DNA of 60,737 nucleotides from an uncultured Mollicutes bacterium (GTDB lineage Bacteria; Bacillota_I; Bacilli_A; ML615J-28; CAG-313). Under the pieces are notes generated by a model. It was given only the letters and a program-made list of their open reading frames with translations. It did not search any database and was not told the origin of the DNA. The translations under genes were made by a program, and so were the position numbers. Shown one piece after another: positions 7,640 to 59,439 of the stretch. How positions within the stretch are numbered: the stretch's first letter is position 1; each line of letters begins with the position of its first letter. The stretch spans positions 1-60,737 of the forward strand of contig CALEGV010000007.1 in NCBI GenBank assembly GCA_937875785.1, read 5' to 3'.

Positions 7640-8776
7640 TTACACTCCTAAAATATAAAATCCTTTATAGTTTCTTTGAACCATATGTAGCCACTCAAGA
7701 ATTGTTTCATAATCTTTTGGTCTATTATCTTCTATTTTCTTAATAATTGTTTCTAAATCAGTTAATGAATAATAATTTATACCAAATAAGTCTAGTGACT
7801 TTGTATTATTTGGATGCAAACCATTATCAAAAACATCTCCATAGTTAACTAAAAATTCATCCATTGATTCATCGCTAATAACATCCACAAATAAGGATGA
7901 CTTTTTAGAAAACTCTATTTTATTAAAATTCGGCTTATTTGATTCTATTAATTGAAATTCAATATAACCACTGCCTTTTTTTTGATAATAAAATAAAAAC
8001 ATTTTGTCAGTAGGAGTAGAATAACCATAATCATACCAATAAATAATTTTGCTCATTTCATATATAGCTTCTTCCAAAGATAAATACACTTTTTCTTCAC
8101 ATTCATATTCTTCACACCATATTAGTATATCAGTGTCAATTTCTTTTGCTTTAAAAAATGTGTTTGCTAAATCCAACTTATATATTTTTATCTGATAATT
8201 ATTATCATTCTTTTGAATTGTTACAGCGTGATTATAATTTTTATCATATTTAATTTCCACAGAATCCATTAAACTATAATTATTTGGTGTAGTTTTTTTT
8301 ATATAGGACAAATTCTTCTGTTTATCTTCAATTAATAATTCGAATGAAAAAGTATTATTTTTATTTTCTTTTACTTTTTTTACAATCAATAGTGAATAAT
8401 TATCTTCACGATCTATTATATCAAAATATACTTTTGCATATTGATTTTCAAAATAACAAGACTTAATTGTCTTTCCACCAAATTTGTTTTTAATTTTTTT
8501 ATTTAATAATTTCTTTTCCCTAATTATCTTGCATTTCTCTACAATATTATCAGAGTATCTATAATAAACATGATCGATAATTACTATATAACATTTTCTT
8601 GATGAACCTATCAAATCAAATATTAATAGAGACAACATACAAACAGATAAAACTGTTAAACTTATCAAAGTGTTAGTTTCCTTTGAAATGCTAAATGAGA
8701 TAACATTTGCAGCAATGGCTATAGACCAACAAATATATAAAATTCTTAAAACATTAAATTCTTTTTTCATGTTCAT
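7640..8776 (-). CDS. Hypothetical membrane-anchored protein (2 N-terminal TM plus ~300-aa soluble domain)
   Basis: 378-aa ORF, first gene of the operon, directly downstream of a consensus promoter. Confidence 0.55.
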   Translation of the reverse strand: MNMKKEFNVLRILYICWSIAIAANVISFSISKETNTLISLTVLSVCMLSLLIFDLIGSSRKCYIVIIDHVYYRYSDNIVEKCKIIREKKLLNKKIKNKFGGKTIKSCYFENQYAKVYFDIIDREDNYSLLIVKKVKENKNNTFSFELLIEDKQKNLSYIKKTTPNNYSLMDSVEIKYDKNYNHAVTIQKNDNNYQIKIYKLDLANTFFKAKEIDTDILIWCEEYECEEKVYLSLEEAIYEMSKIIYWYDYGYSTPTDKMFLFYYQKKGSGYIEFQLIESNKPNFNKIEFSKKSSLFVDVISDESMDEFLVNYGDVFDNGLHPNNTKSLDLFGINYYSLTDLETIIKKIEDNRPKDYETILEWLHMVQRNYKGFYILGV

Positions 8777-51713: not shown

Positions 51714-52889
51714 TTATAAAACTCTTAAAATCACACATTTTAAATATAATGATTCATCGCCACCTAATCTTGTAGGATGATCTGGAGATTGAATTTTAAA
51801 ATCTATCATTTGTACCATCTTTTTTGCATCTTTGGCTGCCTCTTTTAACATTTCTAAAAACAAAGCAGGTGTCATATGTTGTGAACAAGAAAACGTAAAT
51901 AAAATACCATTATGCTCTAACAATTGAAGTGCATGCATATTAATTTCTTTATATCCTCGATATGCCTTCTCGATGGTTTCTTTTGATTTGGTGAAAGCAG
52001 GTGGATCAAGAACAATGACATCGTATTTCCCTTTATTTTTTTCATCATGAAGAAAATCAAACACATCAGCACATACGATTTCTATATTCTCTTCAAAATG
52101 ATTTAACTTGGCATTTTCTAAAATATCTTTACAGGCCTTTTCACTAATGTCAACAGCGGTTGCTGATTTTGCCCCATAATGTAAAGCGTGGAGAGAAAAA
52201 CCACCTGTATGTGAAAAACAATCCAAAACATTTTTTTCTTTTACATATCTTTCTAAAGCGGCTCTATTTGTTTTTTGATCTAAAAAATATCCAGTCTTTT
52301 GACCATTTTCTAAATCTACTTTAATGAATACTCCATTTTCTTCTATGGTTACAATGGGATTGAAACTCTTGGGATATAGTATCTGTTTTCTTTCTTCTAA
52401 ACCTTCCTTTTTCCGGACAGAAACATCACTTCGTTCCATGATTCCTAAAGGATGAAATATTTCTATCAATGCTTGCACAATTAAATCTTTATTTTTTTCC
52501 ATTCCAAGTGATAAAACTTGAATAGAAAGATAATCTCCATATTTATCAACAATTAATCCAGGTAATAAATCTGCCTCTCCAAAAACAACACGATAGTTAT
52601 TGTCAAATCTTACATTCTTGCGATACATATACGCATCATAAATTCTTGATTTAAAAAATTCTAAATTGATTTCAATATGTTGGAAACTAAGCATTCTAAC
52701 CATTATTTTACTAGAAGTATTTAAAAAGCCACAACCGATGAAAGTTTTATCCCATGTGTAAACATCACAAATCTCACCTGATACAATATGTCCTTCAAAA
52801 GCCAGAACTTCATTTGAAAAAATCCATGGGTGTCCTTCTAATATTCTTATTTCTTCATTCTTTTTTAAAATTACTTTTTGTATATGCAT
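51714..52889 (-). CDS. Class I SAM-dependent rRNA methyltransferase with PUA domain (RlmI-like)
   Basis: GHPWIFSNEV N-terminus. DCFSHTGGFS and VLDPPAF motifs. Confidence 0.8.
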   Translation of the reverse strand: MHIQKVILKKNEEIRILEGHPWIFSNEVLAFEGHIVSGEICDVYTWDKTFIGCGFLNTSSKIMVRMLSFQHIEINLEFFKSRIYDAYMYRKNVRFDNNYRVVFGEADLLPGLIVDKYGDYLSIQVLSLGMEKNKDLIVQALIEIFHPLGIMERSDVSVRKKEGLEERKQILYPKSFNPIVTIEENGVFIKVDLENGQKTGYFLDQKTNRAALERYVKEKNVLDCFSHTGGFSLHALHYGAKSATAVDISEKACKDILENAKLNHFEENIEIVCADVFDFLHDEKNKGKYDVIVLDPPAFTKSKETIEKAYRGYKEINMHALQLLEHNGILFTFSCSQHMTPALFLEMLKEAAKDAKKMVQMIDFKIQSPDHPTRLGGDESLYLKCVILRVL

Positions 52890-53224
52890 GACTTACCTCT
52901 TTACATCTTTGCATATTATATTACAATTTGACTTTTTTTTCAATTAATTGATTAAAAATCTATTGTTTTTTTGACGATGGATGAAAAATATTGTACAAAT
53001 TAGGCAAAAGAGGATAAGAGATTAAATACATTAATTCTTTATTCTCATCTTGTTACTTTATGTTTCATATTCACTTGCTTTGCATTATAAGTAATATAAA
53101 ACTTCTTTCTACACCTCAAAATACATTTTCTACGTTCTCCATACCTAGTATAAACAAAACTATATTTACCAATTGTTTTGTTTACATGATGATGAAAGAT
53201 TTCATCAGTTTCTTTATTTCTACT

Positions 53225-53269
53225 TTGTCATATTTGACAATAATTTTTTTAATAATGTCAATGTTGACA
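53225..53269. promoter_or_regulatory. Two palindromic operator candidates upstream of the XRE gene
   Basis: TTGTCA-tatt-TGACAA (53225-53240) and TGTCA-atgt-TGACA (53256-53269). Further half-sites TTGTCA (53285-53290) and TGACAA (53316-53321). TATAAT at 53299-53304. Confidence 0.55.
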
Positions 53270-53333
53270 AATAATGTATTTTTCTTGTCAAAATAGTATA
53301 TAATATTAAAAAAAATGACAAAGGAGGCAATGT

Positions 53334-53615
53334 ATGTATTGGTGTAAACGAATAAAAGACTTGCGTGTAGATTCAGATTTAACAATTGCCGAACTTGCCG
53401 AAAAACTAGATATTAGTGCTAGAACAATATCTAGATATGAAAAAGGCATATCAGAGCCAACTGTAAGTGTTTTAATAAAACTATGCTTAATATATAATGT
53501 CAGCATAGATTATATTTGTGGTATAAAAGATACAACAGAAATAACAGAAAAAGGTATTAAAGAGAAATTAACTAACGCAACAGAAAATCTATTAAAACTT
53601 ATCAATGACCTTTAA
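53334..53615 (+). CDS. XRE-family HTH transcriptional regulator
   Basis: 93 aa. AAGGAGG lies 6 nt upstream. LTIAELAEKLDISARTISRYEKG HTH. Confidence 0.85.
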   Translation: MYWCKRIKDLRVDSDLTIAELAEKLDISARTISRYEKGISEPTVSVLIKLCLIYNVSIDYICGIKDTTEITEKGIKEKLTNATENLLKLINDL

Positions 53616-53630
53616 ACTTATAATACTTTA

Positions 53631-53657
53631 AAAGAAGGAAACATCCTTCTTTTTTTA
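53631..53657 (+). terminator. Terminator after the XRE gene
   Basis: aaagaagga-aaca-tccttcttt, a 9-bp stem followed by a T-run. Confidence 0.75.
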
Positions 53658-53722
53658 TATGCATCAGTTAATATTGTAAAAAAAATTTGTTTGAGACTAC
53701 TCATGCTATTTTTGTATAAAAA

Positions 53723-53750
53723 TTGACATTTTTTTCCAAATATGTATAAT
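53723..53750 (+). promoter_or_regulatory. Near-consensus SigA promoter for the IbrA/IbrB-like pair
   Basis: TTGACA (53723-53728), a 16-nt spacer ending in TG, then TATAAT (53745-53750). Confidence 0.6.
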
Positions 53751-53784
53751 ATATTTAAAAGATAAGTAATTGAGGATATGGCCT

Positions 53785-55110
53785 ATGATGAAAAAGTATT
53801 TAAATACAAATGTCTATCAAAATCTACTAAAACGATTAAATTTTATATTTCAACAATTTGATAATATATATGTTTCTTTTTCTGGAGGAAAAGATAGTGG
53901 TCTACTTTTGAATCTTGTTTTAGATTTTCAAAAAAAATATTATCCTAATCGAAAGATTGGCGTTTTTCATCAAGATTTTGAAGCTCAGTATACATTAACT
54001 GTAGAATATGTGGAAAGAACGTTTGAAAGAATTAAAAATGATGTTGAACCCTATTGGGTATGTCTTCCTATGGCTACAAGGACAGCAGTAACAAATTACA
54101 AAATGTTTTGGTATCCATGGGATGATACCAAAAAAGATTTATGGGTTAGAAAAATGCCAGAACATGAGTATGTCATAAATTTAAATAATAATATCATAAC
54201 AACTTATCGCTATAAGATGCATCAAGAAGATTTGGCAAAACAATTTGGTAGATGGTATAAAGACAGCCATAATGAACTATCAACCATTTGTTTGCTTGGA
54301 ATTCGTGCGGATGAATCTTTACAAAGATATAATGGTTTTTTAAATAAAAAATATGGCTATATGGGCCAATGTTGGATTACAAATCAGTTTAAAAATGTAT
54401 GGTGTGCCTCCCCATTATATGATTGGACAGTCAGTGATGTATGGCATGCAAATTTTCTTTTTGGTTATGATTATAATCATATCTATGATTTATACCACAT
54501 GGCAGGTGTAAAACCATCACAAATGCGAGTAGCATCACCTTTTAACGATAGTGCTAAAGAAAGCCTAAACCTTTATCGTATTATTGATCCAGAAATTTGG
54601 GTAAAGTTGGTTGGCAGAGTACATGGAGCAAATTTTGCGGCAATATATGGAAGAACCAAAGCTTTAGGTTATCGCAATATTACACTTCCTGAAGGACACA
54701 CATGGGAATCTTATACTAAATTTCTTCTTTCTACTCTTCCAACTAAAATTAGAAATAATTATGTTAAAAAATTTAATACATCTATCCATTTTTGGCATAC
54801 AACAGGTGGTGGTCTAGAAGACAAAGTAATTAGGGAACTATTAAGTAAAGGTTATAATATTAAATGTAATGGTATATCTAATTATACAGTACTAAAAAAT
54901 AAGCGAATTATTTTTGTCGGAAAAATTCCAGATAATACAGATGATATAAAATCAACAAAAGATATTCCTAGTTGGAAAAGAATGTGTTATTGTATCTTAA
55001 AAAATGATCACACTTGCCGTTTTATGGGATTCGGTTTATCCAGAGAGCAACAAAAAACAATTGAATTAATAAAAGAAAAATATAAAATATTAGACGAGGT
55101 AGAATTATGA
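53785..55110 (+). CDS. ibrA: PAPS-reductase-like PP-loop ATP pyrophosphatase with DUF3440-type C-terminal region (IbrA-like)
   Basis: ATG 53785 after GAGGA. PP-loop VSFSGGKDSGLLLNLV. About 440 aa, matching IbrA/DUF3440 proteins. The stop overlaps the next start (ATGA). Confidence 0.7.
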   Translation: MMKKYLNTNVYQNLLKRLNFIFQQFDNIYVSFSGGKDSGLLLNLVLDFQKKYYPNRKIGVFHQDFEAQYTLTVEYVERTFERIKNDVEPYWVCLPMATRTAVTNYKMFWYPWDDTKKDLWVRKMPEHEYVINLNNNIITTYRYKMHQEDLAKQFGRWYKDSHNELSTICLLGIRADESLQRYNGFLNKKYGYMGQCWITNQFKNVWCASPLYDWTVSDVWHANFLFGYDYNHIYDLYHMAGVKPSQMRVASPFNDSAKESLNLYRIIDPEIWVKLVGRVHGANFAAIYGRTKALGYRNITLPEGHTWESYTKFLLSTLPTKIRNNYVKKFNTSIHFWHTTGGGLEDKVIRELLSKGYNIKCNGISNYTVLKNKRIIFVGKIPDNTDDIKSTKDIPSWKRMCYCILKNDHTCRFMGFGLSREQQKTIELIKEKYKILDEVEL

Positions 55111-55661
55111 GTAACAAAAGTCCTGTTTATCATATTATTGCGGTACCAATAGAAAAGATTATTCCTAACACTTATAATCCAAATTCTGTGGCACCACCAG
55201 AACTTAAATTATTATATGAAAGTATTAAAATTGATGGTTATACAATGCCTATCGTTTGCTACCATAACCAACTGGACGATACATACACAATTGTCGATGG
55301 TTTTCATCGTTATCGTATTATGCTAGAAAATCAAGATATTTATGATCGGGAAGAAGGGATGTTACCTGTATCAGTGATTGATAAGCCTTATGATTATCGA
55401 ATGGCTAGTACAATTAGGCATAATCGCGCTCGTGGTAGCCATAACGTTGATTTAATGAGTAACATTATAAAAGAACTAACAAAATTAGGTCGTTCTGATA
55501 ATTGGATTTCTAAACATTTAGGTATGGATAAAGATGAAATACTACGTCTTAAACAAATTACTGGTTTAGAATCACTATTTAAAGATGTTGAATTTGGAAA
55601 AAGTTGGATTCCAGAAGAGGAAATAAAATTAGATGATGAAAAAGAGGAAAAAAGTAATTAA
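55107..55661 (+). CDS. ibrB: ParB/Srx-fold N-terminal-domain protein (IbrB-like, DGxHR motif)
   Basis: 184 aa. IPNTYNPNSV, IVDGFHRY and IRHNRARGSH motifs. Confidence 0.7.
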   Translation: MSNKSPVYHIIAVPIEKIIPNTYNPNSVAPPELKLLYESIKIDGYTMPIVCYHNQLDDTYTIVDGFHRYRIMLENQDIYDREEGMLPVSVIDKPYDYRMASTIRHNRARGSHNVDLMSNIIKELTKLGRSDNWISKHLGMDKDEILRLKQITGLESLFKDVEFGKSWIPEEEIKLDDEKEEKSN

Positions 55662-55682
55662 TATACTTTTTCCTCTTTTATT
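55641..55682 (+). terminator. Terminator closing the plus-strand islet
   Basis: aaagaggaaaaaagta / tactttttcctcttt (15 bp with one bulge) overlaps the stop, followed by a T-rich tail. Confidence 0.75.
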
Positions 55683-55782
55683 ATTCAATTACTCATAGTT
55701 ATACCTATTTTTTCTCTCACTTCAAAATTATGATATAAACTATATTATATTAAAATCTTACCAAAAAGGTTCAAATGATACA

Positions 55783-56769
55783 TTATTTGGTCAAATTTTT
55801 TTGCATTCCCGCAAATGATTGTACAATTTTAAATCCAGCACCCATATAGATATATCTTGCATGATTGTTTAACCCCGTATAAAAGGTCATAAATTTTGCT
55901 CCATGCATTTTATTATAATATGCAAGGCTACTAAATAAAGCTTTTCCAAGTCCTCTTCCTCTTACTTCTTCTAATATGGCAATTCCATCAAAATGCCCTC
56001 TTCCACTTGTTTCATTCCACATTGCACCTGTCCAACCAACAATTCTGTTGTGTTTGGCAACAACTAGAAATGGATATGGGTGTTCTAAAGATAGATTACT
56101 CCTAATTACCGATTCAAAATCATTAATGTTTAAATCACGATAAAATTCTTCCAAACCATAATGCTTGTTTGGATCATATAGTTCTATCACAATTCCATCT
56201 TTTTTGTTTTCATCTATAATTTTTTTTACACTATCGCTTAATTCATACTGCTCCAAATCTAAATGAAAAGCATCTTGATAAGCATAAGTCTCATATCCGC
56301 GATGTAAATAGAAAAAATACTCATTAGAATTAATTCTAATACCAGGTGAACAAGGATGATCATGATTGTCTGTGTTGGGAATATACCAAGAATAGCAAGA
56401 TGGTAAAAAATATGTTGCGGCAACTTTTGTTCTTCCATGCTCCTTAAAATATTGTTCTAAATTCCTTAAAAGGGTTGACCCTATTCCTTTATGACGATAT
56501 TCTTTTTTTACGATAATAGCATTGATGATCCCCGCAACATTAGGATTATCTAAATATTTTTTTCGCAAATATCCAATGGAATAGGCAATCAGTTCATCAT
56601 TATCATAAACAACTGTAACTGTTTCATAAGTAAAATCAGGGTTTGTGAGAAGTTTTTCTTGGTATTCTTCTAAAGTCATTGGCTTAAAAAAATATTCTTC
56701 TTGGACGACTTCATTCCACAACTCACACATCTTTTCTAAATCCTTTTTTTCTGCTTGAAAGTATTTCAT
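55783..56769 (-). CDS. Tandem GNAT N-acetyltransferase
   Basis: Two acetyl-CoA motifs: YRHKGIGSTLL and VRGRGLGKALF. Confidence 0.75.
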   Translation of the reverse strand: MKYFQAEKKDLEKMCELWNEVVQEEYFFKPMTLEEYQEKLLTNPDFTYETVTVVYDNDELIAYSIGYLRKKYLDNPNVAGIINAIIVKKEYRHKGIGSTLLRNLEQYFKEHGRTKVAATYFLPSCYSWYIPNTDNHDHPCSPGIRINSNEYFFYLHRGYETYAYQDAFHLDLEQYELSDSVKKIIDENKKDGIVIELYDPNKHYGLEEFYRDLNINDFESVIRSNLSLEHPYPFLVVAKHNRIVGWTGAMWNETSGRGHFDGIAILEEVRGRGLGKALFSSLAYYNKMHGAKFMTFYTGLNNHARYIYMGAGFKIVQSFAGMQKNLTK

Positions 56770-56771
56770 AT

Positions 56772-57863
56772 TTATTTTCCTCTTTCTTTTAATTCTTTTA
56801 GAAATTCTTCAATTTCCTGTAATTTATGAATAAAATTGTTTGTATCATTTAGGCTTGGAAGCATAAAGATATGCATATCTTTATTTACTTTAGGTTTATT
56901 TGTTAAAACAAGAATGGATTTAGCACTTTTTTCATTTTGAAACATTGAAATGGGTAGAACGATTAAACACTCTATATGTGCATGTTGATATAGATACGTG
57001 TTAAACAGTTTACTATCTTTATTTGTAAAAAAATCATTATCTATTAAATAAAAAGATGGATGAAATTCTTTATTCAACAAATCATGTTCAATAGCAAGAT
57101 ACGGAAAATAGGTAATATGTTGATCATAAAGTTCGGAATGAAATTCACTATTTTCATAATCATATACCGCTAAATCACTAATGACAACGTCAATATCATG
57201 GATAATATATTCCAAAGTATCTTGATAATACATTGTTAAATCTTCCATCATCATATTGGCCTTATGAACAGCTACTTTTGCAAGCAACTCATGATTTTCC
57301 ATTCCAATCATTTTTACCTCTTTATCCAAATGATTATTTACTGTAAACATAAGATTTCCAATACCAAAATTAGGGTCAAAAATAGTAAGTTTTTTTTCGT
57401 TATAAAAATATGCGTTTAAAAGTTTGGCAAAAATCATACCGATAGCATCAGGAGTAAGAATATCTAATGAAAAATTCACACTTTTATATGCCTTAATATC
57501 TAATAAAAATAGTGCCTTTCTTATTTCCTCTGTATTTAATCCATTTTCTTCCACATCTAATCGAAAGGTTTCTAATATATCATCAATTTCTTTTTGGGCT
57601 TCATCATCAATATGAAGAGGTACCTCATCTAAAAAATAATCTATAACCTTTATCATTGCTTCATAGTAATTCGTTGATGGGCGCTCAACATTATAGTTGG
57701 TGACATCTGAATTTTCATGTTCTTCATCAATTGATGCAAAATAGCATTTCATAATTGCTTCATCAAGTAAATCAACCATTCGATTAATCATATTTCCTTT
57801 TGTTGTTTTTTCTTTTGATACCCATTGATTTCTTTTAGCTTTTTCCATTGTTAACCTCCTCAA
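56772..57863 (-). CDS. Class I SAM-dependent methyltransferase, YtxK-like (N6-adenine-MTase-like fold)
   Basis: 363 aa. IFDPNFGIGNL (motif I-like) and VISDLAVY in place of NPPY. Confidence 0.5.
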   Translation of the reverse strand: MRRLTMEKAKRNQWVSKEKTTKGNMINRMVDLLDEAIMKCYFASIDEEHENSDVTNYNVERPSTNYYEAMIKVIDYFLDEVPLHIDDEAQKEIDDILETFRLDVEENGLNTEEIRKALFLLDIKAYKSVNFSLDILTPDAIGMIFAKLLNAYFYNEKKLTIFDPNFGIGNLMFTVNNHLDKEVKMIGMENHELLAKVAVHKANMMMEDLTMYYQDTLEYIIHDIDVVISDLAVYDYENSEFHSELYDQHITYFPYLAIEHDLLNKEFHPSFYLIDNDFFTNKDSKLFNTYLYQHAHIECLIVLPISMFQNEKSAKSILVLTNKPKVNKDMHIFMLPSLNDTNNFIHKLQEIEEFLKELKERGK

Positions 57864-59439
57864 TGATTTTTAAGGCACATTTTATTCCATCTACAGCACT
57901 AGTGATGATTCCCCCAGAATACCCTGATCCTTCACCAATTGGATAAATTTTTTTAATATTTGTTTGATATGTTTCATCTCTTGTGATTTGAACAGGACTT
58001 GATGATCTTGTTTCAACAGCCGTTAACACGGCATCATCATAAGCAAAATGATTCATCTTTTTGTCAAAATGAAGAATTGCCTCTTGAATATTATCACATA
58101 GCCAAGTTGGCAAAATATCATAAAGATTACATCCAATATATCCTGGCTGGATTGTAGGTTTCACACTTCCAAATTGTATTGTAGAAATATTCTTTTTAAA
58201 ATCTTTATACATTTGACATGGTGCATAAAAATTGTTCGCCAAAGCATATGCTTTATTTTCTAATTCTCTTTGAAATTTTAATCCATCTAGGGGACTATTT
58301 TGATAATAATCCTCTGGTTTAATCTCAACGAGGATAGCTGCATTTGCATTTTTTCCATCACGACGAGAATTACTCATACCATTTACAACTAAATGCTGGT
58401 CATCGCTACTTGCGTTTACAACAAATCCTCCTGGACACATACAAAAAGAATAGGCAGCACGTCCATTTGAAAGATGTGTTACAAGTTTATATGAAGCAGG
58501 AGGAAGAAATTTAGACGCATCATGGTATAGCAATGCATCAATCAATGATTGGGGATGTTCCATTCTTACTCCAATTGCAAAGGCTTTTGGCCTCAAATTG
58601 ACTCCTATATTGCATAACATTTGATATGTATCTTCAGCACTATGTCCAATTGCCAACACCACCCCATGATATTGTTTTTCCATTTTATCCTTATTTTCAA
58701 GAATAGTGGATATATTATAATTTTCCTCTTTCATTTCAATAAGTTTTGTTTCAAAAAGAAGTTCAACACCAAGTCTTCCCAATTCTTCTCTTATATTTTT
58801 TATAATTTTCCTTAATTCATCGGTTCCTATATGTGGCTTTGCTTCATATAGGATGTTAGGGTTAGCTCCAAATTCAACAAAAATTTTTAAAACTTCATTC
58901 GTAAATGTTATCGTATTTCCTGTATTCAACTTTCCATCAGAAAAAGTGCCTGCTCCCCCTTCACCAAACTGAACATTTGATTCTTTGTTTAACACCCCTG
59001 TTTGAAAAAAACATTCAACATCTTTGAAACGCTCCTCAACTTTTTTTCCTCTATCAATAAGCGTTACCTTTGCACCACTTTTTGCCAGAATGAGTGCATT
59101 AAACAATCCAGCTGGTCCCATTCCAACAACTAAATAATGTCTATTTTCCTGAATACGTGGTATTTCTAAATGACTAGGGAGATGGGGTTTTAACCCTCCA
59201 TCTTTTTCATATTTTTTTAACAACTTACTTTCTAAATCTCTTTTGCAAGAAAAACCAACTGTTAAAATATACATTGCTTTTTTTCTTGCATCAATACTTT
59301 TTTTTAATAAAAAGATATTGCTAATATCACAAGATTGTAATTTAAATTTTTTTATAATATGTGCTTTTGCATATTCTAATAAAGTGGTATCCGTTACTTT
59401 ACAATTGATTTCATATTTTATTCCTTGGTATTTTAACAT
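57835..59439 (-). CDS. NAD(P)/FAD-dependent oxidoreductase (uncharacterised FAD-dehydrogenase family)
   Basis: 534 aa. VVGMGPAGLFNALILAKSGAKVTLIDRG. Confidence 0.7.
   Translation of the reverse strand: MLKYQGIKYEINCKVTDTTLLEYAKAHIIKKFKLQSCDISNIFLLKKSIDARKKAMYILTVGFSCKRDLESKLLKKYEKDGGLKPHLPSHLEIPRIQENRHYLVVGMGPAGLFNALILAKSGAKVTLIDRGKKVEERFKDVECFFQTGVLNKESNVQFGEGGAGTFSDGKLNTGNTITFTNEVLKIFVEFGANPNILYEAKPHIGTDELRKIIKNIREELGRLGVELLFETKLIEMKEENYNISTILENKDKMEKQYHGVVLAIGHSAEDTYQMLCNIGVNLRPKAFAIGVRMEHPQSLIDALLYHDASKFLPPASYKLVTHLSNGRAAYSFCMCPGGFVVNASSDDQHLVVNGMSNSRRDGKNANAAILVEIKPEDYYQNSPLDGLKFQRELENKAYALANNFYAPCQMYKDFKKNISTIQFGSVKPTIQPGYIGCNLYDILPTWLCDNIQEAILHFDKKMNHFAYDDAVLTAVETRSSSPVQITRDETYQTNIKKIYPIGEGSGYSGGIITSAVDGIKCALKIIEEVNNGKS

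Follow-up and report, generated by a model that had tools for sequence, protein, structure and literature searches.

The ibrAB gene pair and its products

Within a stretch of 60,737 nucleotides from an uncultured Mollicutes bacterium (contig CALEGV010000007.1; the whole stretch is referred to here as the window), we analyzed positions 53225-55682, where a gene encoding an XRE-type regulator is followed by two genes of the IbrA/IbrB type. The window is mostly occupied by minus-strand genes, and this block is one of only four positions in it with genes on the plus strand. The initial annotation of this DNA had listed three plus-strand open reading frames (ORFs), the motifs SGGKDS and VDGFHRY, an ATGA overlap, two terminators and two palindromes, all of which were present. 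The features of the gene pair are as follows:

53714-55645, plus strand: ibrAB cassette of ~1.9 kb, with DNA homology to a copy at a different locus in a relative
53723-53750, plus strand: cassette promoter, TTGACA-16-TATAAT, matching the sigma-70 consensus at 12/12 positions
53733-53738: lone TTTCCA hexamer in the promoter spacer, a putative remnant of a TGGWAA/TTWCCA repeat element
53785-55110, plus strand: ibrA/ybdN-like gene, 441 amino acids, with an N-terminal PAPS-reductase-type PP-loop ATP pyrophosphatase domain (SGGKDS) and a C-terminal DUF3440 domain
55107-55661, plus strand: ibrB/ybdM-like gene, 184 amino acids, with a ParB/sulfiredoxin (Srx) N-terminal domain (DGFHR, RHNRARGxH), a helix-turn-helix (HTH) domain and an acidic tail
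55640-55679, plus strand: cassette terminator AAAAGAGGAAAAA/TTTTTCCTCTTTT, a 13-bp perfect stem overlapping the ibrB stop codon

The stop codon of ibrA and the start codon of ibrB overlap in the ATGA at 55107-55110, and the mechanical ORF of ibrA begins at a TTG at 53770. Profile searches matched IbrA to Pfam DUF3440 (PF11922; 290 bits, 7.5e-87, 181 of 182 profile positions, above the gathering score) and to PAPS_reduct (PF01507; 37.2 bits versus a cutoff of 22.5, 3.9e-9). An AlphaFold2 model of the protein (predicted local distance difference test score, pLDDT, of 87) was used in Foldseek searches, which returned CysD, CysH, the PAPS-like domain of FAD synthase, TilS and TtuA, all of them matching the N-terminal half only, and a sequence search of the PDB gave no relative of IbrA or of its DUF3440 domain. 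IbrA was also similar over its full length to YbdN of E. coli K-12 (28% identity over 435 columns, E=3e-58) and matched phrog_2302 (2.3e-98).

The conservation of IbrA was judged on 36 diverse homologues, in which the PP-loop, DxE, C93 within CLP, GxRxDESxxR, PxYDW, YNxxYD, RVxGxN and KND were all invariant or nearly so, as were S33, G35, K36, D37 and S38 within the SFSGGKDSG of the window protein. C93 was the only nearly invariant cysteine; the C-terminal CxC-x7-C of the window protein was not conserved, which makes an iron-sulfur (Fe-S) cluster in IbrA unlikely. Four apparent IbrA fusions in the representative library (P0159, P0164, P0193 and P0254), in which a truncated PAPS_reduct or DUF3440 part is joined to ABC_tran, PGA_cap, PRC-barrel or epimerase fragments, are most likely chimeric contigs or gene calls, and were not used.

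IbrB, whose translation contains VDGFHRY, matched Pfam ParB_N at 1.2e-5 and 25.7 bits, just below the cutoff of 26.3. Its AlphaFold2 model had a pLDDT of 76, moderate because the alignment from which it was built is a shallow one of 72-80% identical sequences. Foldseek nevertheless matched it to Noc (7ol9, 5e-8), KorB, ParB and sulfiredoxin with probability 1.0, where the Noc, KorB and ParB matches cover both the nucleotide-binding and the HTH domains, and those to sulfiredoxin, SbnI and free serine kinase fall on the N-terminal domain. In the model, IbrB is thus predicted to have the two-domain layout of ParB, Noc and KorB and to lack their C-terminal dimerization domain, ending after the HTH in a disordered acidic tail. 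It is 50% identical to E. coli YbdM over its full length (E=7e-57) and matched phrog_2159 (2.1e-76). An alignment of IbrB proteins from Clostridia, Anaeroplasma-like genomes, E. coli (YbdM) and four phages (of Lactobacillus, Streptococcus, Fusobacterium and Mycobacterium) contained 54 columns that were invariant from E. coli to the mycobacteriophage, with the motifs NxYNPN, PPE, DGxTxPxV, DGxHR, RHNRARGxH and GMxxDExLRxKQxxGL among the invariant positions, and by such comparisons IbrB is the more constrained partner of the pair.

The domain assignments of the initial annotation, namely a PP-loop/PAPS-reductase enzyme with DUF3440 and a ParB/Srx-fold partner with DGxHR, were thereby borne out by profile searches and by Foldseek on the models alike, and its identification of the pair as IbrA and IbrB was borne out by the full-length homology to YbdN and YbdM. 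By sequence, the locus belongs to the IbrA/IbrB (YbdN/YbdM) family, with every defining feature that we looked for at this level found. Database annotations already in use for such proteins are "DUF3440 domain-containing protein" and "ParB N-terminal domain-containing protein".

The probable insertion site and the adjacent XRE gene

The description of the enzyme pair as an insulated transcription unit held: it has its own promoter at 53723-53750 and a terminator on either side. An Rfam search of 52800-55900 gave no riboswitch or leader. To place the locus among relatives, the RlmI protein encoded in the window was used as a query on 185,579 species genomes, yielding four close Anaeroplasma-like relatives (loci L086-L089 in our numbering), whose RlmI is 72-77% identical to that of the window. 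All four share the gene order of the window, FAD2-FAD1-YtxK-GNAT-XRE-RlmI-DapF-AGCS, and in all four ibrAB is absent from this site, the stop codons of XRE and GNAT being separated by ~50 nt and a single hairpin, compared to 2167 nt in the window (53616-55782). Consistent with this, the DNA homology of the backbone to L086 ends at 53530 and returns at 55811.

In two of these four relatives (assemblies JAMPDF01 and JAMPAL01), a copy of ibrAB is found on a separate scaffold (L001 and L002, respectively), between a MarR/ABC-transporter group and an amidase gene. When positions 53714-55645 of the window were compared to L001 by blastn, the two were 81.9% identical over 1934 nt, a span that begins shortly before the -35 box and ends where the terminator starts, and the cassette promoter was kept in both L001 and L002 despite the different genomic context. 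By RlmI and GNAT identity, the window falls between the L086-L088 clade and L089, and since both of these flanking lineages have an empty site, an insertion in the lineage of the window is the parsimonious reading. We therefore hold, with moderate confidence, that 53714-55680 is a self-contained IbrA/IbrB cassette, comprising a consensus promoter, two translationally coupled genes and a terminator, that was inserted between the convergent XRE and GNAT genes. Two points speak against the insertion: its polarity rests on parsimony with few genomes, and neither terminal direct or inverted repeats nor a recombinase flank the cassette to account for its move. Likewise, the window contains no tRNA gene that could have served as an integration site, and no reciprocal empty site for the L001-type location. 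The presence or absence of 53.2-55.7 kb in relatives, which the initial annotation had named as a check on the whole block, thus gave a divided result, with the ibrAB part variable and the XRE part constant (present in 4/4 relatives), and the functional unit is, as these comparisons predict it, one of two genes with a portable promoter, not three.

The assembly labelled 'Prevotella sp. NALB_7821b_9' (L001/L086, JAMPDF01) has the gene order of the window, with 77-88% protein identity, and the same order and identity are common to this assembly, the window and an Anaeroplasma bactoclasticum metagenome-assembled genome (MAG), so that the label or the binning looks wrong.

Upstream of the cassette lie the following features:

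53225-53240: palindrome TTGTCATATTTGACAA, 0 mismatches, a probable XRE operator belonging to the backbone, outside the cassette
53255-53270: palindrome ATGTCAATGTTGACAA, 1 mismatch, 30 bp from TTGTCATATTTGACAA, a probable XRE operator belonging to the backbone
53334-53615, plus strand: XRE/Cro-C1-type HTH regulator, 93 amino acids (Pfam HTH_3, 1.7e-17), a resident backbone gene divergent from RlmI
53630-53653, plus strand: intrinsic terminator 3' of the XRE gene, a 10-bp stem followed by a T run

The initial annotation had made this XRE protein the dedicated repressor of the pair, and the corresponding explanation is that of a three-gene inducible module for conflict or defense, in which XRE represses ibrAB through TTGTCA-N4-TGACAA. 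The XRE gene does directly precede ibrA in the same orientation, and both palindromes are good ones: at no more than one mismatch they are the sole sites of this type in the window (2 found compared to 0.38 expected, with two reached in 4 of 100 shuffles). Moreover, dedicated regulators of the pair exist elsewhere: in E. coli, ybdNM is controlled by CitR (PMC9068703), and loci L069 and L076 have a small Cro/C1-type HTH protein. Against the three-gene module, both palindromes (53225 and 53255) lie directly upstream of the XRE gene itself, a terminator separates this gene from ibrA, and the ibrA promoter region (53616-53785) contains no site resembling an XRE operator. XRE orthologues (52-63% identical) occupy the syntenic RlmI-XRE-GNAT position in L086-L089, where the promoter region, with its TATAAT box, ribosome-binding site and GACA/TGTC palindromes, is also kept in position.

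We further surveyed the neighborhoods of the pair. With IbrA as a query, at least 562 genome stretches were found to encode relatives, and the best 80 loci among them (IbrA identity of 73-88%; mostly Lachnospiraceae, as well as other Clostridia, Erysipelotrichaceae-labelled genomes and Anaeroplasma-like MAGs) served as our neighborhood sample. The gene-neighborhood check for XRE co-occurrence that the initial annotation had suggested went against it, with a single weak XRE match in the 80 loci and no adjacent XRE in 79 of them, and of 79 other loci only one had an XRE-type operator upstream of ibrA, which is about chance. As no defense genes lie nearby either, we consider the three-gene module very improbable. 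Because both the XRE gene and its operators are kept at the same site in relatives that have no ibrAB there, they are, by this comparison, backbone neighbors that stand outside the ibrAB system, and the resident XRE gene is probably autoregulated. The case illustrates that the adjacency of a repressor with good operators can mislead.

Several observations concern this regulator and its surroundings. In the Acholeplasmatales relative, L089:8960-9807 holds tandem XRE paralogues (60% and 63% identical to the XRE protein of the window), each with a similar promoter region of its own. The RlmI-XRE intergenic region (noted at 52972-53308 in the window) measures 444 nt here compared to ~205 nt in the relatives, and the extra DNA has no DNA homology to them and contains short hairpins at 53151-53184 and ~53188-53207. 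In the two Clostridia loci mentioned above, the Cro/C1-type HTH gene (HTH_26, 1.1e-18; L069:7729-7992 and L076:7747-7992) abuts ibrA on the same strand, and these loci lack the TGGWAA repeat element described below, in what looks like an alternative regulatory arrangement for the ibrAB cassette.

On the other side of the cassette, 1.1 kb downstream, a minus-strand gene at 56772-57863, which shares 29 nt with the gene after it (57835-59439), matches N6_Mtase weakly (2.5e-6). The initial annotation had stated that Dnd, Ssp, restriction and methylase partners are all missing; the first three parts of this statement stood, and the last did not in view of this match. The N6_Mtase-like gene is kept in relatives without the cassette, and for this reason we regard it as backbone and not as a partner of ibrAB.

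Distribution, conservation and a repeat element upstream of ibrA

Of 8,000 candidate protein clusters scored, more than 6,500 matched each partner, and relatives of IbrA and IbrB were found in more than 560 species-level genomes and in 224 phage records. The pair is inseparable in our sample: ibrB directly follows ibrA in 79 of the 80 loci, and the exception is a contig end, making it 79/79 where this could be checked.

The viral versions have a different architecture. A short SNF2-like helicase adjoins ibrAB in Lactobacillus phage CR28, Streptococcus phage PYS40 and Fusobacterium phage phiFN37. The phage proteins compared with those of the window are 40-43% (IbrA) and 56-68% (IbrB) identical to them. 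In IMG/VR, the helicase is directly upstream in 13/13 loci where IbrA is 51-62% identical to the window protein and absent in three loci where it is 73-74% identical. The same combination is found in Listeria, where lmo1309-1311 are annotated as IbrB, IbrA and SNF2 (PMC5736727). Given that it has no helicase, the window locus belongs to the two-gene chromosomal type, like ybdNM.

Other viral loci showed further variations. In Mycobacterium phage Gaia, gp104 (L084:5308-6207) is an IbrB homologue with an N-terminal ectoine-synthase-like cupin domain (1.3e-32), and a PD-(D/E)XK protein is encoded upstream in place of the SNF2 helicase. Fusobacterium phage phiFN37 carries a second ParB-like gene (L085:8763-9293), located 3 kb downstream of its IbrA-IbrB-helicase module and followed by a gene annotated as queuine tRNA-ribosyltransferase, an arrangement typical of 7-deazaguanine DNA modification.

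The flanks of the chromosomal loci vary, with no other gene family present in more than 12 of the 80. The annotated neighbors include MatE, ABC transporters, OGG, QueA, a PP-loop/rhodanese protein (ThiI-like), PdxT and AraC-type regulators, and by class they are transporters, tRNA/rRNA modification genes and repair genes. DndA/D/E, SspB/C and restriction genes were neither found in the flanks of the window nor recurrent in the 80 loci. PADLOC gave only weak DndC and BrxP matches for IbrA (27-31 bits for the DndC models), none for IbrB and generic HTH models for XRE.

We then compared the divergence of the pair to that of RlmI. Between the Anaeroplasma-like group and Clostridia, IbrA is ~75% and IbrB ~79% identical where RlmI is 43-47% identical, and within the Anaeroplasma-like group IbrA is 88% identical where RlmI is 77%. 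Recent horizontal transfer was judged unnecessary as a cause of this high identity, since the islet has the same GC content as the window (28.8%) and IbrA and RlmI diverge in similar proportion in near and distant genome pairs; rather, the conservation at the sequence level points to strong purifying selection. The pair is also far more conserved than is usual for defense genes, and this, together with the housekeeping neighbors in the 80 loci and the weak or missing PADLOC matches, lends no support to the conflict or defense role that the initial annotation had put forward.

The same data bear on the view that the pair performs a housekeeping function, such as RNA modification or the activation of a nucleotide or small molecule, with no role in DNA or conflict. 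It would agree with the extreme conservation and with the housekeeping neighbors, among which QueA and the PP-loop/rhodanese protein recur and RlmI is found in the flanks of six of the 80 loci and in the window, and also with the structural matches, which for IbrB include small-molecule kinases (SbnI and free serine kinase) and sulfiredoxin, and for the PAPS-reductase fold of IbrA include CysD and FAD synthase. It is at odds with the patchy distribution, the phage carriage and the SNF2 helicase linkage, with the full HTH that IbrB retains like DNA-binding ParB proteins, and with the E. coli phenotype, which is a transcriptional activation of prophage genes. On balance we regard a housekeeping role as unlikely.

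As to RlmI itself, a homologue lies within the fetched ibrAB flanks in 6/80 loci (L014, L016, L022, L028, L040 and L053), compared to ~0.4 by chance on a rough estimate, and in L016 and L028 it is directly upstream of ibrAB and co-directional with it. This linkage is partly shared synteny of Lachnospiraceae (RlmI, OGG and MatE); the association in the window, where RlmI is at 51714-52889, 0.8 kb from the cassette, is independent of it.

A repeated hexamer was found upstream of ibrA in the chromosomal clade, where the density of TGGWAA/TTWCCA is 8.8 per kb compared to 2.1 per kb across the loci. At least two such hexamers are present in 41 of 79 upstream regions, compared to 5% of random 160-nt windows. 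Pairs spaced 9-11 nt apart, start to start, occur upstream of ibrA in 33 of the 79 loci (among L006-L080), and these represent 33 of the 47 such pairs in 1.11 Mb. In 21 pairs the hexamers are direct repeats with the consensus TGGAAAAAnATGGWAAA, the others being inverted in either sense; an example is TGGAAAAAAATGGTAAAA, from the 7950-7975 region of L009. De novo k-mer enrichment against other intergenic regions recovered the same words together with a conserved promoter, TTGTTGAAT ... TGTGCTAAAT. In the Anaeroplasma-like group the element overlaps the promoter, and the stretch at which L018 has a full palindrome, TGGTAAATTTTACCA, reads TTGACATTTTTTTCCA in the window. The element was found neither in the helicase-type viral loci nor in the region upstream of E. 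coli ybdN.

From their position and enrichment, the TGGWAA repeats may constitute a candidate operator borne by the cassette. An alternative reading of the element at the RNA level, as a CsrA-type GGA site, is less likely, as half of its variants either are inverted or have GGTAA instead.

Possible mechanism and comparison with known systems

Though the IbrA/IbrB pair is widespread and E. coli K-12 itself has a copy, no chemistry has been assigned to it, and we found no mechanistic study of IbrA/IbrB, DUF3440, ybdN/ybdM or a PAPS reductase with ParB in the literature. The sole genetic phenotype known is that both IbrA and IbrB are needed for the activation of the eib prophage genes in E. coli ECOR-9 (Sandt et al. 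2002, as cited in PMC6008420); for the window locus no eib-type targets are known, no search aimed at them having been made.

We propose that IbrA and IbrB would form a complex whose substrate is nucleic acid, with DNA the most likely. Within it, IbrB would bind a nucleotide and DNA and would position or activate IbrA, which in turn would spend ATP on adenylating a target group and so ready it for substitution, possibly by sulfur carried on C93, and the outcome would be a modification or a nucleoprotein state that alters gene expression, as for eib activation in E. coli. Our best guess, a function directed at nucleic acid, comes mainly from phages and Listeria, where an SNF2-type helicase accompanies the pair and suggests that DNA is the target. 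DNA also fits the matches of IbrB to Noc, KorB and ParB, which extend over their HTH DNA-binding domain. That the paralogous ybdNM operon of E. coli has a dedicated repressor, CitR/YbdO, shows that members of this family are usually held in check (PMC9068703). For the two-gene chromosomal clade, expression would probably be set by the TGGWAA operator next to the promoter. This element is possibly bound by IbrB, an obvious candidate since it is the sole DNA-binding-type protein that always travels with the cassette. For the window copy, expression may be largely constitutive, because the element is reduced here to one hexamer beside a perfect -35 box.

Several considerations weigh against this scheme. 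Biochemical activity is not known for any member of the family. The helicase is absent from the window and from the 80 chromosomal loci, and this two-gene clade lies among housekeeping genes that include several for RNA modification, so that an RNA or small-molecule substrate is possible. The window copy retains only the hexamer at 53733-53738, next to its perfect -35 box. The recognition helix of IbrB is invariant even in the E. coli and phage homologues that have no upstream motif, which makes a host regulator an equally possible binder of TGGWAA, and some variants of the element partly resemble a CodY box.

A bolder version, which we put forward as speculation and consider rather unlikely, holds that IbrAB is a minimal, self-regulated DNA-marking machine, in which the IbrB clamp loads at TGGWAA sites, including the one at its own promoter, and carries IbrA along the DNA, where IbrA would adenylate and then substitute (for example, thiolate) a position of the backbone or of a base. 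If true, this would be a new kind of DNA modification, and it would explain why silent prophage genes become active in E. coli as well as why phages carry the pair with an SNF2 motor.

A purely regulatory pair of transcriptional co-activators or anti-silencers, which modifies nothing covalently, can also be envisaged; here IbrB would be a DNA clamp switched by a nucleotide, like KorB, and IbrA would load it or act as its partner. In favor of this view, the IbrB model reached its best TM-score with KorB, a ParB-family transcriptional repressor, the repeat element adjoins the cassette promoter, and eib activation, the sole genetic phenotype known, requires both proteins (Sandt et al. 2002, as cited in PMC6008420). 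The catalytic-looking motifs of IbrA (SGGKDS, DxE and GxRxDESxxR) are, however, invariant or nearly so, which argues for turnover over a scaffold, and we give a purely regulatory pair only a slim chance.

The fold pairing of IbrB and IbrA, a ParB/Srx fold with a PAPS-reductase-fold PP-loop enzyme, is that of DndB and DndC (SspD and BrxP belong to this comparison as well), and it suggests a minimal Dnd/Ssp-like system for phosphorothioate or base modification, serving phages as protection and cells as an epigenetic mark and drawing its sulfur from IscS-type desulfurases of the host. Such a system would agree with the weak DndC and BrxP matches, with the single near-invariant cysteine of IbrA and with the SNF2 helicase linkage in phages and Listeria (PMC5736727). 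In addition, loss of CitR raises ybdNM together with genes of the cysteine regulon in a published table (PMC9068703), which would fit sulfur consumption but is a correlation only. Opposing it, IbrA scored 27.3 bits with the DndC equivalog TIGR03183, whose cutoff is 290.4, and lacks a set of Fe-S cysteines, the 80 loci contained no DndA/D/E, SspB/C or restriction partner, and IbrB had no PADLOC match; a minimal system of this kind is, in our estimation, fairly improbable.

Taken alone, the locus in the window adds little; it is its comparison with the other loci that yields constraints, namely a two-gene unit, the constraint on IbrB, the lack of an Fe-S set in IbrA and the existence of two architectures. 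The conserved repeat element of the chromosomal clade is directly testable as a binding site.

Compared to Dnd proper, IbrA differs from DndC in having DUF3440 and lacking the conserved [4Fe-4S] cysteines, and IbrB carries DGFHR where DndB has DGQHR. DndB also binds the promoter of its own operon. With the DndC score far below its cutoff, no Fe-S cysteines and no dndA/D/E, the Dnd system itself was ruled out. The IbrB model superposes on the ParB, Noc and KorB clamps (Foldseek E of 5e-8 to 1e-5, template modelling (TM) score of up to 0.51), but the arginine patch GERRxRA of ParB clamps is replaced at the aligned position by VDGFHRYRIM, IbrB has RHNRARGxH as its third motif and no C-terminal dimerization domain, and its partner is an enzyme, whereas ParB-type clamps pair with ParA or KorA. 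A canonical ParB CTPase was ruled out as the identity of IbrB, the GERRxRA motif and the dimerization domain being absent.

The SNF2-IbrA-IbrB modules of phages and Listeria encode orthologues of both proteins (IbrA 40-62%, IbrB 66-77% identical), with gene order and coupling unchanged; they have the helicase and lack the TGGWAA element, whereas the chromosomal clade has a conserved stand-alone promoter with TGGWAA and no helicase. Closest in organization are YbdN/YbdM of E. coli and the paralogous IbrA/IbrB of the ECOR-9 IbrAB island, which share the gene order, the overlap and the domain architecture of the window pair. YbdM has a 45-residue N-terminal extension, and the window IbrB has an acidic C-terminal tail. 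The ybdNM operon of E. coli is repressed by the divergently encoded LysR-type regulator CitR/YbdO (PMC9068703), whereas the cassette in the window carries a promoter of its own and has as its neighbor an XRE gene that is unrelated backbone.

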